Positions 14,868-25,655 of a DNA stretch of 64,000 nt are shown piece after piece. The first letter of the stretch is position 1. Each line of letters begins with the position of its first letter. The stretch is taken from contig CAVVMW010000004.1 in assembly GCA_963749495.1 (NCBI GenBank), forward strand, positions 576,001 through 640,000, written 5' to 3'. The position numbers and the translations under genes were made by a program. The notes beneath the pieces are model-generated. The model was not told the origin of the DNA and did not search any database. It worked only from the letters and a program-made list of their open reading frames with translations. The stretch comes from an uncultured bacterium (GTDB taxonomy: Bacteria > Verrucomicrobiota > Verrucomicrobiia > Limisphaerales > UBA8199).

Positions 14868-15902
14868 CGCGCACGGGAGATGTTGCGTTCCGGGCCAAAG
14901 CCGGGGCGCCATTCGCTGGGCATAAACGCTGTCCGGAGGCAGGCCCCATCAAGTGCCTCCAGGGGGCTGTGAACGCTCAAACTCTCGGCATGCAGGTAGC
15001 CCATGGTGGTTTCCAAGGACTTATGTCCCATGGCTTCCTGAATGGCGCGCGCGTTGGTGCCCCGGTCCAGACAATGCGTAGCATAGGCGTGGCGCAGCTC
15101 ATGGGGAAGGACCGAGAGGCCCGAACCTGCGCCGGGCGTGCTTGACGGCGCGCTGGACGTTGACTTCGTGCATCCGATAGCGGACCAGTCCTGGGGCACG
15201 AGGGTCACGGCAGGGCTGGTGGGCGGGGAAAAGCCAGGCCCAGCCCCAACTGAAACGGCATTCGGGATACTTGCGTGCCAGTTGGTGTGGCAGCATCAAC
15301 GGGGTGCCGTCCTGCCGGTCGCGCTCCCAGACCGTCCGGGCGACCTGCATCTGTTGGACCAATTCGGGCACCAGCGAGGAGGGCAGGGCGACCACGCGGT
15401 CGTTTCCGCCCTTGGCGCCACGGATGGTCAGCCGCCTCCGTTCGAGGTCCACATCCTTGATGCGTAGGTTGAGGGGTTCGGACACGCGCAAGCCGCAGCC
15501 GTAGAGCAGGCGGGCGATGAGATTGGTCGGATAGCCGCCTTCGTTGCGGATGGCGCGCAGGAGGGCGTGGGTCTCAGTGACCGTCGGGGCGTGGCGTTCA
15601 TGGACGGGGCGTTTGGCGCGCAAGGCGCTGACGCACCCGAGCGGCTGAGCGAGAACCTCGCGGTAGAAGAAGAGGATGGCGTTGAAGGCCTGGTTTTGAG
15701 TGCTGGCGGCCACGTTGTGCCGGGAAGCCAGCTCGGTGAGGAAGCGTTCGAGCTTGGCTTCGCTGGAGAGGCCCCCGGGCATGGTGGGGAGCGCGGCCAT
15801 ATAGCGGCGGAGCCAGAAGACGTAGCACTCTTCGGTGGAGAGGGCTTTGTGCTGGCGGCGGAGGACCTCGCGGAGTCGCTCGATTGCGATGGTCGAGTTC
15901 AT
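14864..15902 (-). CDS. intI: Integron integrase (tyrosine recombinase), frameshift near 15120
   Basis: LYGCGLR; integron-specific LARKYP..W.W..FPA insert; HELRHAYATH, MGHKSLETTMGY in the second frame. Confidence 0.85.
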
Positions 15903-16156
15903 TTTTGGTTCGAGTCTAGACCAATGGGTGGGACAACCGCTGTCCATGGGAAAAAATTGCCGAGCAAAGTTTTTTGCGCTTGCAATATACGAACTGGAAA
16001 CGGTATCTTCGCAAATGGAGTTGCTAGAGTGAACAACTTACGCAAAACAAGCGGCCGAATCTCCGGCCAGCACCGCGACTGGCGGTCGCAGAAAAAGAGT
16101 TATGACACTCATAGGCTGCCGCAACGCAGCCTGGCAAGACCGGGAGGAGGATCAGG

Positions 16157-20143: not shown

Positions 20144-22894
20144 TCATTGGTTCTCTCGGACTTTCGGGCCGGCGCCATCCTGCCCGGCGGCGCTGGCGGC
20201 CTCTGCGCAGCCCTCGCGGTAGAGTGCCTGGATTTCCCGCGCGCTCAGGCTGCTATTGTAAAGGCGCACATCGGCAATCCAACCGTTGAATTGGCGTCCG
20301 GGTCGGATCGGGTTTTCCCCAATCAGGACCGGGGCCTCGTTCCGGGCCATCTCGCCCATGACGGCAACGGAGTCCTCGAGTTTGCCGTCCATGTATAGCG
20401 CGAGACCCCGGCCGGTGTAGAGGCCCACGAAGTGGTGCCACCGGCCGTCATTGGCGCTCCGTTTCGAGGTCACACATCCCCAGGCCTGGCCGGGGGAGGC
20501 GACGGGAGCCAGTCCATCGATCGTAAAACTGACGACACTCGTCTCGAAGGACCGTTCCAGACGCCAGGCGCCCGCGGCAGGCCGCAAGCTGCTGCCTTTG
20601 GCCACGATGGTCTGGGAACGCCGATCGAACTGGCGGACCTTGACCCAAGCTGCAACGGCCATAGCGTCGTGGAACCCAAAGCGAACGTCGTTGCCGCAGT
20701 CGATGAAGTTCCGCGCGCCGTCAAATTCGAGCGCCCGGCCCAACGGCCCCGGCACCGGCGTCCAATGCGGCGGGCCGTTGACCTTGCCGGCGCAGCCGTG
20801 CCCGCTGGCGTCGCGAGCCAGCGATCCTTCGCCTTCATCCAGCTTCCACCAGCCCGCCAGTCCCGCTGTTTCGAAGCACGCCACCCGCCCGGCAACGATC
20901 CGCCCATCCCCCTGCACCTCGTCAACGCGCCAGAAGCAGGCAGCCATGGGCTTTAAGGGCGGGGCCTCGAAGCGAGTCTGGTCGGTGGCACCGAGCAACG
21001 TCAGCGCGGCGGGATCGGCTCCGGCATAGACGCGATGCTCCTTCGCGCCGTCGCCCGGCGCCCAGCGCAAGACCGCGTTACTCGCAGCCACGCCGAGGGC
21101 GCCGTCCTCGGGCTGAATCGGCCCGGCTTGGGGACCGGTGGCTTGGTGGAAAACGACTTCGCTCAAGCCCACCTTGCCGCTCGTTCCCCACGGAACGACC
21201 TTCTCGATCCGGACTTTTGCAGCCGTGACGCCGTTGAGCTTCAGGATGGCCGGTTCGTCGTAATCACCGGTGCCTTCCGCCTCCGCGATTTCCGCTCCGC
21301 GCAAGACGGTCTGCCAGGTCTTGCCGTCGGCCGACACGACCACGTCGGCCTTCCGAATGCCGTTGGTCGTCTGCCATTCGGCGTTGTAATTCCAGAGTTC
21401 GATGGCGGCCAGGGGCACGGCTTCGGGAAAATCGAATTCGAGGCAAAGGCCGGAACTCCAGGCGCCGAGCCACATGCCTGCAGGATCAACGCTATGCTCC
21501 AGCAGGCCGTCCTGGTCCGTGTCGCCCAACCCGGCGCCATTGACAATGGCCGGCAGCGCGGTCTCATCGGCCGCGGGACTGAGATGCACGGCCTGGACGC
21601 GCACTTTCGGCCCCAGGACCGGCGCCTTTCGCGCGCGGGGTTTGAGCGTCAGCGGACGAGTCAACAACTGGAACGGGCCAACCCGTTCGACGGTTGCGAG
21701 GATCGGACGCTGCGCCTTCTTTGGCTCTCGCCATGAGAGCGAACAAACGCCGCCTCAGCCAAACTCGAAAGTGTTGGTGGCACGAAATGATCCGTCCAGG
21801 CTGGTCAGCAATAGACGCGGCCCGTGTATTTGCTGGTTGGGGGTCTGAAAGGTAATCGATTCGTCGAGCCGGCCCCGGAACTGAAGGCTGAACGCAACCT
21901 CGTTCGTCAGGTCCCTGGCCCCGAGGGTGCCGAGGACGGGTTCCCCGATCTCCAAGAGCGCCGGCTTATTGGTGGCCACCGTGAAGCTGGCCGCCTCGCC
22001 GAAACCGTCACCGGAAAGGGTCCAGGAAGCTCCTTTATCATCCTTCCTTTCGATGGTCCAGCCGTCGAGCCGATACTCACCGGCGGGGAGCATGGCCTGG
22101 CCTTTCGCCGGCTTTCGGAGGAAATGGCCATTCAGACCCGCGGCCGTGAATTCGCTAATCGTTTCCGGCACCCGCACCTGGCCAAAGGCAACGCCCTCGG
22201 CCTTCTGCAGCTTGACAAACGCGCCCTCGCGGGCGACCTCGATGCGGAACAGTTGGCCGTCCACTTCCAACAGGTGGCCCAGGTATCGCTCCTCGGCCTT
22301 TTCCCCATGCATCACCACGCAATCGCAGTCCGCTGGGTTGGCGGACTGGTCGTTGAAGGCGCCGTTGACGTTGCCGTCGATAAGTTCTACGCTCCGTTTC
22401 TGGCTGCCGATCTGCACCATCCCCTCGTACCAACCGCAGGATTGAACCACCAATTGCCGGTCGCTGGCGTTGAACTGGTAGAGGGAAAAACCCAGGTGAT
22501 ACGTGATTGGCCCCTCCTCGCCCTTGAAGAGGACGCGCACCGGATCGAAAGCAACCATATTCCCGCCGCGTGCCCGGGCGTTCACTGGCGCTTCAGCGTC
22601 CAGGCGTCCGGTGCCTTTGGTGTCGAAGAAAAGCCGGTCGTAGAGACCGGACTGGCGCGTGCGGTCCAGGCAGAGCCAGCGGCCGCCTGAGGGATCCATC
22701 GGCGTGGTCCACCGCGCGAAGAGCGGCGGGGCGTTGAGTTTAGGCAAGGCGACACCCGGCGGGGCGTCGGTGGTGAGTTCGAGCAAGCGGGATCCGCGGC
22801 CTTCCGCGCCGTGGTGGTATTGAAGCCACTGCTCGGTTTGAGCGGACGCCGTGGCGGCGAAGAGCAGGCCGGACAACAGCATCGACCGGCGCAT
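20144..22894 (-). CDS. Secreted F5/8-like + LamG protein with in-frame TGA at 21755-21757 (candidate selenoprotein)
   Basis: ORFs 21755-22960 and 20144-21667 share a frame; reads TFEFG*GGVCSLSWREP with no other stop; signal peptide from ATG 22894. Confidence 0.7.
21712..21750 (-). promoter_or_regulatory. SECIS-like hairpin just downstream of the TGA
   Basis: GCTCTC-ATGGC-GAGAGC with a lower stem GCGTTT/AGGCGC; loop begins 20 nt after TGA. Confidence 0.55.
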
Positions 22895-23235
22895 CCGAGT
22901 CAGAAGCTCCGGGAGCGAGAGGACCTTCCCACCGCAGACGGCATGAGATAGTGCGTTCACAACCGGCCTTTCGTTTGATTGCCCCCATTACAGCGCATTT
23001 GCGCGCTCCTGTCAATCATTGGTTTGGCTCTTTTCGGGCCAGTCCACCAGCCGGAACAACTCCAGGATGTCCGCCTTCTCCAAGCCAATCTCATACAACC
23101 GCCGCGACTGTGACTGCCAGGCCTATGTGCCACGTCCTGGCGAGTAATTAGCGCGCCCAGGCAAACTTCGAACGGAACAGGGCCACTCCTGGTCCTTGTT
23201 CGTGGCTGAGCCGCCGCAAAGGCTGGACCAGCGCC

Positions 23236-23887
23236 TCAGCGTTGACCTCCGGTGAAGGCCTCTTTGACTGGTCGCGCAATCCAGGCTGCCGGTGCGCGGA
23301 TGTCAAAAATCATGGCGAGTGTCGCTGCCGTGTCGTAGGTATTGACCGGCGACTGTATTTGGCGGCCCACTCGCACTCCGGGACCGGCAATGATCCACGG
23401 AATCTCGAGCTCCTCCATGGTCGCGCCGCCATGCTTCTTGCCGACGCCGCCGTGGTCAGCGGTGACCAGGACGACCGTGCGGTCTCGAATCCCGGCCTCG
23501 TCCAAGGCCGCCAGCACCTGCCCGACCAGTCCATCCATGTCCTCGACGGCTCGAAAATACTCCGGGGATTTCCAGCCAAATTCGTGGCCGGCATGGTCAA
23601 CATCGTCAAAGTGGATAAAAAGGAAGTTGGGTTTCATCTCTTTGATGAGCTGGGCCGCTCGCCTCGCGGTCGCAGCAGAACCCTTCACATTCTCCAGCAC
23701 ATCCGGCGCGCCGGGCTCGAGGAGACGGCCGAACCCATCCCAGTCGTGAACGCACACTATCCGGGAGTCGGGCCGTTGCGCGCGCAGTTGCCCGAAGATG
23801 GTGGGGAACATTCCCCCGGGCCCGAGCGCAGTCGGTGCAATCTCGAACTTGTTGGTCTGCCAGTCATTGGAGGTCACCCCGTGCTGT
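23236..23887 (-). pseudogene. Alkaline phosphatase paralog lacking N-terminus
   Basis: Begins at QHGVTSNDW; clearly homologous to 7293-8246. Confidence 0.8.
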
Positions 23888-24764
23888 ATCCCTGCCCCGG
23901 TCTGTTTACAACGCTTCGAGCTTGGCTGACTAGACTCTCCCCTTTCCTTAGCTGCGCATTTCGGGCGGCTTCTCCATCTTTCGCAGCAAAGTGAAACCGC
24001 TTGGCAAGTTCGAGATATTGCTGAGCGAGGAAGAAATTCCCGCCCGCCTCGATGTTGCTGGCGATCTGCTCTGCGGATTCGGCGTGCCGCTTGTTGTCAC
24101 CGGCCTCATGCTCCAGGAGCAAGTCCATCAAGCGAGCCGACAACGCCTCCTTCTCCACGTCCACGCGGCTGTTGATGACATGTTCCACATATGTGACGTA
24201 ACTTGGGAACGGTTCATTCTTCTTGCCCAAGATGCGAGCAAGCCCGAAGCCTCTTCGTAACGACTCGATGTCGCATACCCAATCCTCTGCAACATTGAGC
24301 CTCTTGAAGTTCTCCAAATAGCTTTCGGCGGCGATCTTGGCGGATTTATGATCTTTGCGGGTCACCCAGAGGATATCGGCAAAGCGTGCACGCATCGCGG
24401 CGGTCCGGGTTGTCGGTAACAGGCCGGCTAGCAAATCGAGATCCGAAGAGCCTAGATCTTCGAGCGCCATGCTCCGTCGATCATGCATCACGACAAATGG
24501 AGCAAACGGCGGCTGATCGTCCTCCTCTCGTAAAGCGAGCGATGCCACAGAACCCAAAAAACGGAATACCGACTGGCCCTTCTCATCACCGGCTTTCGCA
24601 AGCTGTGAGGATTTCTCAAATAGCAGTGTGTAATAGTCGAAGCAAATCGGATGTTCGGCAGTTGTGATTGCCGCTTCCCAATCGTAATTCGCGACATCTG
24701 CAAGCGCGACATTGAAGCCGCCGCTGCCCGCAGCTGGTTCTTGTTTCTTTGCGTTCGTTTCCAT
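23874..24764 (-). pseudogene. Helical hypothetical protein resembling N-termini of DUF4209/HEPN-associated defence proteins, C-terminally truncated
   Basis: PPFAPF..DRRS..MRARFADILW; lower GC; fused to the phosphatase fragment. Confidence 0.5.
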
Positions 24765-24777
24765 ACGCGATTTGTTT

Positions 24778-25437
24778 TTACCTCATAATGATGGGCAGCG
24801 CCAGCCCTGACGCCCGCTTCCCCAGTGACCCAGTGGATCTTTGCACTGCCTTGTCATTCTTCACGAACAGATCCCACTCGGGAATGCCGCGCATGTTGCG
24901 GATCAACGCTGTGACCGGCATCTCCTTCGGAGCGCGGGGCGTGGTGAGCAGCTTGAGGCCCGCTTCGTGCGGCAGGCGGTTGCCCTTGCGGGCGTTCACG
25001 TCCCTGCTCGACCACACGAGGTTTTCCCACGTGTGTTTGCCGCCACGCGAACGCGGCAGAACATGGTCGAGGCTGCCTTCGTCGGGGCGCAACGCGCGGC
25101 CGGTGTATTGGCAGCGGTTGCCGTCGCGCTCGCGGATTGTGCGGGCGCAGAGCTTCGGGCGCTTCTTCGGCACCTTGGCGAAGTTCACGGCCACAATGAC
25201 CGCCGGCACGCGGATCGGGCCGCGCACGGTCCGCACCGCGTTATCCTGCGGACGGATCGGCAGCGTGATCCACTCGTCCCACGCCACGGGGCGGATGTGG
25301 TTCTCACCTCCGATCTCCAGGCCGGTCGCAACATTCGTTGCCATTTGGCAAAACGCTTCCTGGGGCGTGCGAATGTTGATTGCCTGCCAGTTGCGGTTCA
25401 GCACCAGCACAATCGACTTGTTCAGTATGTCGTTCAT
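24778..25437 (-). CDS. HNH endonuclease (McrA-like) at the 3' end of the tRNA array
   Basis: VLVLNRNWQAI, RDGNRCQY, LDHVLPRSRGG..WENLV....N..KG. Confidence 0.92.
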   Translation of the reverse strand: MNDILNKSIVLVLNRNWQAINIRTPQEAFCQMATNVATGLEIGGENHIRPVAWDEWITLPIRPQDNAVRTVRGPIRVPAVIVAVNFAKVPKKRPKLCARTIRERDGNRCQYTGRALRPDEGSLDHVLPRSRGGKHTWENLVWSSRDVNARKGNRLPHEAGLKLLTTPRAPKEMPVTALIRNMRGIPEWDLFVKNDKAVQRSTGSLGKRASGLALPIIMR

Positions 25438-25511
25438 AAAACGTTTCCACGCGGCCAGATCGCTTCTCGCGCTGAGGTGTTTGTTCTTTGTCGGGGCGTG
25501 TGCCCGGAAAT

Positions 25512-25586
25512 TGGCTGCCTCGCCTGGTTTTGCTCCAAGTCCTCCGGTTTCAGGGACCGGCGCGCTCCTGATTACGCCACGAGGCC
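25512..25586 (-). tRNA. tRNA-Gln(CTG); 5' end hit by hairpin element
   Basis: Hand-folded cloverleaf, loop CC-CTG-AA, encoded CCA. Confidence 0.8.
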
Positions 25587-25655
25587 CGCCGTCGCGCTTT
25601 GTGCTATGGCGCGCCAAGCAATTGGCCCGCCGAGCCGTAGCCGGCAGGCGAAGGC

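Follow-up and report, generated by a model that had tools for sequence, protein, structure and literature searches.

A conserved in-frame UGA followed by a covarying hairpin points to a selenoprotein family in Planctomycetota and Verrucomicrobiota

Positions 20144 to 22894 of the DNA analysed here raise the question of whether two abutting genes are present or a single gene whose internal stop codon is recoded. The stretch as a whole, hereafter the window, comprises 64,000 nucleotides (nt) from an uncultured Verrucomicrobiota bacterium of the Limisphaerales (GenBank assembly GCA_963749495.1, contig CAVVMW010000004.1, positions 576,001 to 640,000). There are two abutting open reading frames (ORFs) on its minus strand: an upstream ORF (21755..22960) of 401 amino acids that begins with GTG and ends with TGA, and a downstream ORF (20144..21667) of 507 amino acids that begins with TTG. 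An earlier note on this DNA, made from its letters and a list of ORFs, proposed that the TGA encodes selenocysteine (Sec, or U) and thereby joins the two ORFs. Comparison with homologues indicates that the TGA at 21757..21755 is very probably a Sec codon. We consider it nearly as probable that the whole explanation holds, wherein a Sec-coding UGA and a selenocysteine insertion sequence (SECIS) hairpin yield one exported protein of 916 residues that belongs to a Sec-obligate family. Three points are shown in silico: the recoded UGA is conserved, the hairpin located at SECIS distance covaries, and family genes are linked in genomes to those of the Sec machinery.

A single reading frame with a conserved internal TGA

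Translation of the minus strand from 22960 to 20144 stays in one frame, in which the TGA is the single internal stop. When this codon is read as U, there is one protein of 916 residues from the ATG at 22894, and U is residue 380. This start is supported by homologues, which carry an equivalent Met followed by a signal peptide. Apart from the TGA, there are no stops and no frameshifts among the 916 codons of the frame 22894..20144. The local context is TNTFEFG-U-GGVCSLSWREP, and a Cys is therefore located four residues past U. The earlier note had given the extent of this frame, its sole internal stop, the nearby Cys, the downstream hairpin with its loop 20 nt away, and the restriction of the downstream ORF to a TTG start, and all of these are as it described, with the gene lying on the minus strand. 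The gene's own terminator is also TGA, but it lacks both the motif and the hairpin, and the 46 nt past it fold no better than expected (z = 0.12). Thus, TGA is not generally reassigned in this organism, whose draft genome spans 11.4 Mb and is 88% complete with 5.8% contamination.

There are seven matches to the N-terminal domain in a six-frame search of 41 related genomes, and an in-frame TGA is found at the same column in all seven. These loci are the window gene, a paralogue on contig C24 of the same genome, and genes in the genomes G002, G003, G017, G022 and G030, with identities of 38-59%. Their motif is TN[TS]FEFG-U-GGVC[ST]LSWREP, except that G030 carries NFSLEYG-U-GGTCSLSWREP. The other matches in the 41 genomes involve the LamG part only.

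A broader census used one genome for each of 185,579 species and a motif pattern that allowed A, C or T as the third base of the codon (TGA, TGC or TGT). It returned at least 132 loci with at least 133 distinct sites, and TGA is present at 133 of 133 sites among the matches listed. Neither a Trp codon nor TAA or TAG occupies the column among the seven relatives and the matches listed in this census, and the TGA called for by the earlier note's homologue comparison was found throughout. Because Cys384 is a fixed letter of the pattern, the census is not independent evidence for that residue. A variant motif, MPFG-U-GGTCGYSWRVP, is present in the gene upstream of the matched site at locus L045 and lies outside the pattern, and many proteins in the sequence library described below end in FAYG, FQYG or FKYG instead of FEYG. 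The 133 sites are consequently an undercount.

There are five sites with both motif and hairpin in the window's own genome, located on contigs C4 (the window gene), C24, C5 and C21, with the fifth being a fragment at C4:527032. The same regular expression gives 12 further chance matches there, all in stop-filled frames. The C24 copy (C24:180486-182267, L036) is a 599-residue class-A paralogue without LamG. The copies at C5:4156-5691 (L037) and C21:700269-702335 (L038) are near-identical, have 484 and 499 residues, and belong to another subfamily with the motif FEFG-U-GGNCAYSWRV. The fragment (C4:526957-527283, L040) lies 49 kb ahead of the window and resembles a remnant of 108 codons.

The downstream hairpin and the selenocysteine machinery

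The predicted hairpin, GCTCTC/ATGGC/GAGAGC, is formed by a 5' arm at 21740..21735, an AUGGC loop at 21734..21730 and a 3' arm at 21729..21724. It begins 14 nt after the TGA, its loop has 5 nt, the spacing from UGA to the apical loop is 20 nt, and the minimal hairpin folds at -9.3 kcal/mol. The published model for bacterial SECIS (bSECIS) elements specifies a stem of 4-16 bp, a loop of 3-9 nt, a UGA-to-loop distance of 16-37 nt, and a minimum free energy of -7.5 kcal/mol or lower (PMC13188914). The window hairpin is within these ranges for all four properties, and 110 of 143 family hairpins fold at or below -7.5 kcal/mol. An Rfam scan of window positions 21500-21900 at E <= 10 gave no RNA family that matches the hairpin.

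There is extensive evidence of covariation supporting the stem. In a gap-free alignment of 143 sites, where columns 24-29 pair with columns 35-40, pairing is present in 98.7% of cells and both sides change in five of the six pairs. Compensatory cells number 119, compared to 16.8 +/- 10 in shuffled alignments (none of 500 reaches 119) and no more than 13 in controls with the partner shifted by 1-3 columns. Columns 24-27 and 36-40 are either free in the search pattern or outside of it, and thus four of the six pairs are independent of the way the sequences were collected. The stem occurs as GCUCUC/GAGAGC, GUACUC/GAGUAC, GCACUC/GAGUGC and GCACAC/GUGUGC, and pairing is kept while the encoded residues vary among SLSWRE, AYSWRV, SYSWRV, SHSWRV and SHTWRV. 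Even a synonymous Arg site covaries: CGA is used at 120 of 143 sites and CGG at 12, where it gives a G-U pair, while CGT or AGT is found in seven of the seven sequences whose pairing base is A. The loop sequences are GUGGC (83 sites), AUGGC (54), AUGGA (3) and GUGGA (3). Judged from this comparison of sequences, the hairpin is selected as RNA, and the conservation of the stem that the earlier note had asked about is accompanied by compensatory changes.

The genome contains the machinery expected for Sec insertion, which the earlier note had named as a further check. There is a tRNA-Sec scoring 73.7 bits, which ARAGORN labels tRNA-SeC with anticodon tca (UCA), and SelA (415 bits), the SelB wing domain (59.6 bits) and SelD (338 bits) are clustered on contig C6. 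FdhA, the formate dehydrogenase alpha subunit, is the commonest bacterial selenoprotein. Its model (TIGR01553) found no match in this genome, although at 88% completeness this does not establish absence. The SelD of this genome has no in-frame stop. Together, these two observations suggest that the family may be a main user of the Sec machinery here.

Carriage of the family also coincides with Sec genes elsewhere. Among 200 genomes drawn evenly from the phylum, a shorter motif pattern matched six, and three of these (G105, G189 and G240) have the bases needed to form the hairpin. The other three matches are not family-like, with two having TGC or TGT and one having TGA, and a reversed-pattern control gave 12 matches, such that chance matches are expected at this stringency. 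SelA is found in 12 of the 200 genomes, including all three hairpin-bearing carriers, and in four of five carrier relatives. One same-genus relative has its SelA in two abutting pieces (G003:C12:203091-204183; profile positions 2-137 and 136-366), which suggests a frameshift or an assembly error.

The surroundings of 82 family sites on 71 contigs were examined by grouping the ORFs no more than 3 kb away into BLAST clusters, and the main clusters were identified from one or two members each with Pfam and NCBIfam. The family gene is adjoined by selA on 9 contigs and by selD on 7, for 14 of the 71 contigs in all. The SelD neighbour, which carries a fused AhpD-type domain, matches TIGR00476 with 374 bits.

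The family, its architecture and its genomic neighbours

A profile built from ten N-terminal domains was compared with 1.84 billion cluster representatives (50% clustering), which yielded 3,598 proteins at E <= 0.001, including 1,923 at E <= 1e-10. Most of the 3,598 are annotated as proteins that stop at the TGA. Among the 150 best matches, 127 end in [FYW]G, which is the residue pair that runs up to the Sec column, because gene callers cut the proteins at the Sec codon. An exact-sequence lookup of seven of these 150 (five truncated and two non-Sec) gave four entries named "hypothetical protein" and three without a name. No full-length annotated form was found among the 515-1642-residue proteins of a 5.8-billion-protein collection, where two matches around the TGA were obtained and neither is read through.

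Taxon titles, available for 80 of the at least 132 census loci, are mostly from Planctomycetota (Phycisphaerae, Sedimentisphaerales, Pirellulales, Planctomycetaceae and Brocadiaceae) and Verrucomicrobiota (including Kiritimatiellia and Limisphaerales). A few loci are from Hydrogenedentota, Sumerlaeota, Riflebacteria, Acidobacteriota and Anaerolineales.

Most selenoprotein families have homologues that carry Cys in place of Sec, and the earlier note had allowed for Cys at this column. None was found by the census, the profile search or a metagenome scan restricted to TGC and TGT, wherein the six matches are all chance hits in stop-filled frames. Five non-Sec homologues span the column, and they have G, S, L, G and Y at this position, with the partner Cys also missing from four of the five. 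As far as these searches reach, the sequences indicate that members either bear Sec or lack the U/C pair altogether. In one of these five (P0035) the N-terminal domains are joined with a BlaR1/M56 sensor-peptidase domain, and in another (P0147) with a type II secretion system pseudopilin G domain, and such fusions fit an extracytoplasmic site for the module.

Members differ in length on both sides of U. Across the 82 sites, the part before U has about 170-200 residues in a short form or about 380-470 residues otherwise. We rejected the idea that forms with approximately 175 residues before U have a second Sec further upstream, as they are genuine short forms with signal peptides of their own, and what lies ahead of them is TAA, TAG or unrelated sequence. 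Past U, members form three groups. Tails of about 41 residues are commonest, tails of about 270-325 residues are read as a multi-pass membrane domain without a Pfam match, and tails of 500-577 residues carry F5/8C and LamG domains, as in the window gene. From these sequences, the family is most likely large, Sec-obligate, exported or membrane-anchored, and found mainly in Planctomycetota and Verrucomicrobiota.

The features of the window gene are collected in Table 1. Structural modelling suggests that the most likely domain order is a signal peptide, an all-beta region of about 210 residues, a transthyretin-like sandwich, an immunoglobulin (Ig)-like sandwich bearing the G-U-G-G-V-C loop, an F5/8C-like domain and LamG. 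Residues 1-428, with Sec replaced by Cys, give an all-beta AlphaFold2 (AF2) model that has a predicted local distance difference test score (pLDDT) of 94.9 and a predicted template-modelling score (pTM) of 0.88, and a second model covers residues 20-318. In the first model, Sec380 and Cys384 are located in the loop between strands 371-375 and 383-388. The strands that form the Ig-like sandwich flank the TGA, and the fold would therefore need sequence from both sides of this codon.

Table 1. Positions of the candidate selenoprotein gene, its features and flanking genes in the window
Feature	Positions	Strand	Basis
Whole candidate selenoprotein gene, 916 codons plus terminal TGA stop	20144..22894	-	Single frame with one internal TGA
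Alternative GTG start, 22 extra residues	22960	-	ORF listing
Putative Sec-type signal peptide, residues 1-18 (MRRSMLLSGLLFAATASA/Q)	22841..22894	-	Read by eye; low-confidence helix 2-15 in model
N-terminal all-beta region, residues 20-232	22199..22837	-	AF2 model, pLDDT 97.4
Transthyretin/CnaB/CarboxypepD_reg-like beta-sandwich, residues 233-318	21941..22198	-	VIA-align
Ig/FN3/macroglobulin-MG-like beta-sandwich, residues 319-422, spans the TGA	21629..21940	-	AF2 block, pLDDT 88-97; VIA
UGA probably read as selenocysteine, residue 380	21755..21757	-	Frame, homologue conservation, truncated gene calls
Cys384 codon TGT, conserved Sec partner in U-G-G-x-C	21743..21745	-	Column invariant in family alignment
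SECIS-like hairpin, 6-bp stem, also encodes SLSWRE	21724..21740	-	Sequence and covariation
F5/8 type C (discoidin)-like domain, borderline	21164..21487	-	Pfam PF00754, 27.2 bits vs cut-off 28.2
Laminin_G_3 (concanavalin A-like lectin) domain	20228..20692	-	Pfam PF13385, 81.8 bits vs cut-off 27.6
Ordinary gene terminator, TGA after ENQ, without motif or hairpin	20144..20146	-	Translation, folding
Phage-type integrase	15099-15947	-	Scan of neighbours
Truncated sulfatase/phosphodiesterase-like ORF	23236-23877	-	Scan of neighbours
DUF7380 protein	23874-24764	-	Scan of neighbours
HNH endonuclease	24778-25617	-	Scan of neighbours

The domains named in the earlier note fare unequally: LamG is well above its cut-off, the F5/8-like match is borderline, and the signal peptide is supported by inspection only. 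The PF00754 match has E = 4.7e-6, and the same domain reaches 28.2 bits in the homologue L061. Pfam gives nothing over the first 470 residues, and the sole addition from NCBIfam is a weak TafC-like match over the LamG part. A search of the PDB with a sequence profile also gave nothing, with the best match being to GFP at E = 0.83. Foldseek searches of the PDB with the 428- and 299-residue models returned only weak global rows with TM scores of about 0.15-0.2, none of which is usable.

The second model of residues 20-318 has a pLDDT of 97.4. Within it, residues 20-232 include two loops rich in Asp, Asn and Gly (DTKGTGRLD and DGNVNGAFND), and this region has no clear structural relative, since the best VIA match has Z 6.5 with 83 residues aligned and Foldseek gives none at E <= 0.001. 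VIA-align matches for residues 233-318 extend from Z 7.3 (4ecn_A, root-mean-square deviation 2.8, 79 residues aligned) to Z 5.0 (5aq0_B, the transthyretin-like domain of carboxypeptidase D). Residues 319-422 reach Z 9.1 with 8qy5_C (root-mean-square deviation 2.6, 92 residues aligned) and Z 8.0 with 4zjh_A, the macroglobulin-like (MG) domain MG1 of E. coli alpha-2-macroglobulin, at 16% identity. VIA values below 8 may reflect a common arrangement of strands, and all of the Z values here indicate fold class only. There is no thioredoxin-like fold and no UxxC or CxxU motif, given the all-beta sandwiches, the U-G-G-V-C arrangement, and the lack of a redoxin match in Pfam or NCBIfam.

The neighbours differ among the subfamilies. 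Of the short-tailed genes (n = 37), 8 are preceded by a divergent selA, and downstream on the same strand there is a double-cubane-cluster reductase in 9 (NF040772, 413 bits), SelD-AhpD in 7 and an ArsM/DVU_1556-like methyltransferase in 6. An apparent operon (L057, L059, L063 and others) consists of the family gene, in some cases the methyltransferase, the double-cubane-cluster reductase and SelD-AhpD/CMD, and it diverges from selA. This short-tailed arrangement is seen in many Planctomycetota and Verrucomicrobiota. Among the membrane-anchored genes (n = 27), 7 lie near NapH/MauN-like ferredoxin membrane proteins, and the NapH-like neighbour is under its curated cut-off (68 vs 213 bits).

In the window's class (SLSWRE, n = 18), a protein with CarboxypepD_reg repeats follows in 11 cases. 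The CarboxypepD_reg-repeat gene downstream of the C24 paralogue (C24:182815-185739, L180:616-3540) seems to be frameshifted near L180:2700-2900, and the end of the continuing frame (L180:2699-3508) resembles, by eye, a TlpA-like thioredoxin fold without CxxC. The neighbours in the window, namely the sulfatase-like fragment, the DUF7380 protein, the HNH and integrase genes, a polysaccharide lyase and a Mo-oxidoreductase, offer no functional lead. The flanks of the window gene suggest a variable or mobile region and not a conserved operon.

Competing explanations and relation to known systems

Several observations weigh against interpreting this locus as a functional selenoprotein gene. The single-sequence fold of the 46-nt region is unexceptional (-15.2 kcal/mol, z = -0.74, equalled by 42 of 200 shuffles), and the case for the hairpin thus rests on homologue comparison and covariation. 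The bSECIS model asks for a G in the first two loop positions, and a subset of bSECIS elements departs from the model (PMC13188914). As the earlier note had remarked, the AUGGC loop of the window fits this consensus only loosely, with Gs at positions 3-4 and none at positions 1-2; G is at loop position 1 (GUGGC or GUGGA) in 86 of 143 relatives. The census pattern was built from the motif itself and is blind to diverged forms or to Cys forms without SWR, and no Cys-form homologue is found among the 133 census sites listed or the five column-spanning non-Sec homologues. No SelA was detected in one carrier, G030, whose genome is 91% complete and has a 74-bit tRNA-Sec adjoining SelD. In addition, the C24 paralogue keeps the class-A context whereas the window copy does not, and the latter is located amid integrase and HNH genes.

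If the TGA were a true stop, there would be two genes, one for a secreted protein of 379 residues and one for a protein initiated at the TTG at 21667. Gene callers treat the family in this manner, as the C-termini described above indicate, read-through forms are lacking from the 515-1642-residue proteins, and the TTG start is available 30 codons downstream. However, the 30 codons that separate TGA from TTG encode the most conserved part of the protein (GGVCSLSWREP...), a confidently modelled beta-sandwich spans the codon, and most members have only about 41 residues after the TGA, which is too few for a gene of its own. Moreover, among the census matches listed, the codon is always TGA and never TAA or TAG. 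Thus, two separate genes are very improbable. It is even harder to credit that the locus is a pseudogene or that the TGA is an assembly error confined to this genome. The surrounding mobile-element genes, the missing conserved neighbours and the draft state of the assembly would accord with such an origin, but 143 independent sequences, drawn from several phyla, have the same codon at this column, and the frame is otherwise intact over 916 codons.

A conserved UGA with a downstream hairpin would also fit programmed readthrough that is independent of Sec, wherein the hairpin stimulates near-cognate decoding of UGA as Trp, Cys or Arg, and the departure of the window loop from the bSECIS consensus could be viewed in the same light. 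Against this, wherever it was tested the family occurs only in genomes with Sec machinery, selA or selD is linked on 14 of 71 contigs, and the hairpin agrees with the bSECIS model in spacing, stem length, loop size and free energy. A Cys or Trp product would predict that TGC, TGT or TGG forms are common, and none was found among the census matches listed or in the TGC/TGT metagenome scan. We consider this explanation highly improbable. A refinement of the Sec interpretation is that both outcomes occur, with Sec being inserted when selenium is available and termination giving a 379-residue product, without the last Ig-like strands, F5/8C and LamG, when selenium or SelB is limiting. Bacterial Sec insertion is inefficient and competes with release factor 2, which would allow for a dual outcome. 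Since the truncated product would stop partway through a beta-sandwich, it is unlikely to be a stable functional protein, and we regard both the dual outcome and a role for such a product as rather doubtful.

We therefore return to Sec insertion as the preferred explanation. The hairpin would serve as a bacterial SECIS element, recruiting SelB and Sec-tRNA(Sec) to the ribosome. Sec would be inserted at position 380, and translation would run through both called ORFs to give one 916-residue protein that is exported via its signal peptide. Sec380 and Cys384 would then flank a Gly-Gly turn on an exposed hairpin loop of the Ig-like domain, presumably outside of the cytoplasm. As in E. coli fdhF-type SelB/SECIS recoding (PMC13188914), an in-frame UGA is directly followed by a coding-region stem-loop with GG in its loop, and tRNA-Sec, selA, selB and selD are in the genome. 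Unlike that system, the Gs of the window loop are at positions 3-4 instead of 1-2, there is no Rfam match, and SelB binding is only predicted.

Recoding of this kind is well established, and the protein family that it would serve here is not. Exported DsbA-like, DsbG-like and TlpA/Prx-like selenoproteins with UxxC or CxxU motifs (PMC13188914) share a single Sec with a nearby Cys and a probable extracytoplasmic location, whereas the window protein has an Ig-like and not a thioredoxin fold, places U-x3-C in a hairpin loop, and belongs to a family without redoxin matches or detected Cys forms. The "Hypothetical protein DG" selenoprotein from Desulfosediminicola (NF049953, GUxG) is similar in its local G-U-x-G and in having no known domain, but it is from another phylum and is reported to have Cys homologues (PMC12013277), unlike the family described here. 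NCBIfam gives no match to NF049953 for the window protein at E <= 0.1 or for five family proteins at E <= 1. Likewise, there is no Pfam match to the UGC selenoprotein domain DUF1573 (PF07610) for the window protein at E <= 0.1 or for seven other Sec-form proteins at E <= 0.01.

The Sec domain (Z 8-9) and the domain preceding it (Z 5-7) resemble Ig-like, MG and transthyretin-like surface modules of bacteria, such as MG1 of E. coli (4zjh) and adhesin repeats, and the C-terminal lectin-type domains are also like those of surface proteins. The identity is 16% or less, and the Z values perhaps reflect only a common fold. To our knowledge, no surface module of these types carries Sec. CcoG/FixG-type membrane ferredoxins have a periplasmic Ig-like domain and act as cupric reductases. 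The parallel concerns only the membrane-anchored subfamily, where the Ig-like domain occurs with NapH/MauN-like Fe-S membrane neighbours at 7 of 27 sites, and nothing of this kind adjoins the window gene.

Neither Pfam nor NCBIfam has a model that matches the N-terminal and Sec region of the family. Table 1 of a 2026 review compiles 119 prokaryotic selenoprotein families and includes no U-G-G-x-C motif and no Ig-like, LamG or F5/8 family, and its text has no instance of Planctomyc-, Verrucomicrob-, UxxxC or periplasm (PMC13188914). BSepDB compiles previously reported families only (PMC13326102). A 2016 paper on Planctomycetes genomes places its selenoprotein candidates in a supplementary table (PMC4807772). 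No description of the family was found in full-text searches of the literature, and a listing in the supplementary tables of selenoprotein papers is possible. Thus, the mechanism is a known one, and it is the protein family that appears to lack both a published description and an entry in family databases. In this respect, sequence comparison supports the earlier note's suggestion of a secreted UxxxC selenoprotein outside the families it recognized.

What the Sec residue might do can be addressed only tentatively. Perhaps Sec380 and Cys384 make up a selenenylsulfide with redox activity, or together provide a binding site for a soft metal or metalloid. Such a function is possible but doubtful, as its basis is motif chemistry together with the neighbours of other subfamilies, which counts as a further point against the fuller interpretation. 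That Sec is used so strictly, no Cys forms having been found, speaks against a cross-link with a purely structural role and in favour of chemistry that requires selenium, such as a low-potential selenenylsulfide or a reaction in which a soft metal or chalcogen is bound or reduced. The partners of sister subfamilies (SelD, the double-cubane reductase, the methyltransferase and the NapH-like protein) point in the same direction, and they are not neighbours of the window gene. A bolder and improbable proposal is that the Ig-like Sec module is an extracytoplasmic centre for handling chalcogens or metalloids and represents the selenoprotein for which the Sec machinery is kept in many bacteria of the Planctomycetes-Verrucomicrobia-Chlamydiae group and allied lineages, with the lectin form being a surface-displayed derivative. 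The short-tailed operon, with its SelD-AhpD, double-cubane reductase, ArsM-like methyltransferase and divergent selA, would fit extracytoplasmic capture or reduction of selenium that feeds SelD.

This family is unusual in that it falls outside the thioredoxin-fold paradigm, seems to place Sec in an Ig-like domain that is presumably extracytoplasmic, seemingly has no Cys counterparts, and is often located beside selA or selD. If the family is confirmed, thousands of gene models would be corrected and a major user of selenium would be added in environmentally abundant phyla. It would also provide a tractable case for learning what chemistry requires selenium over sulfur.

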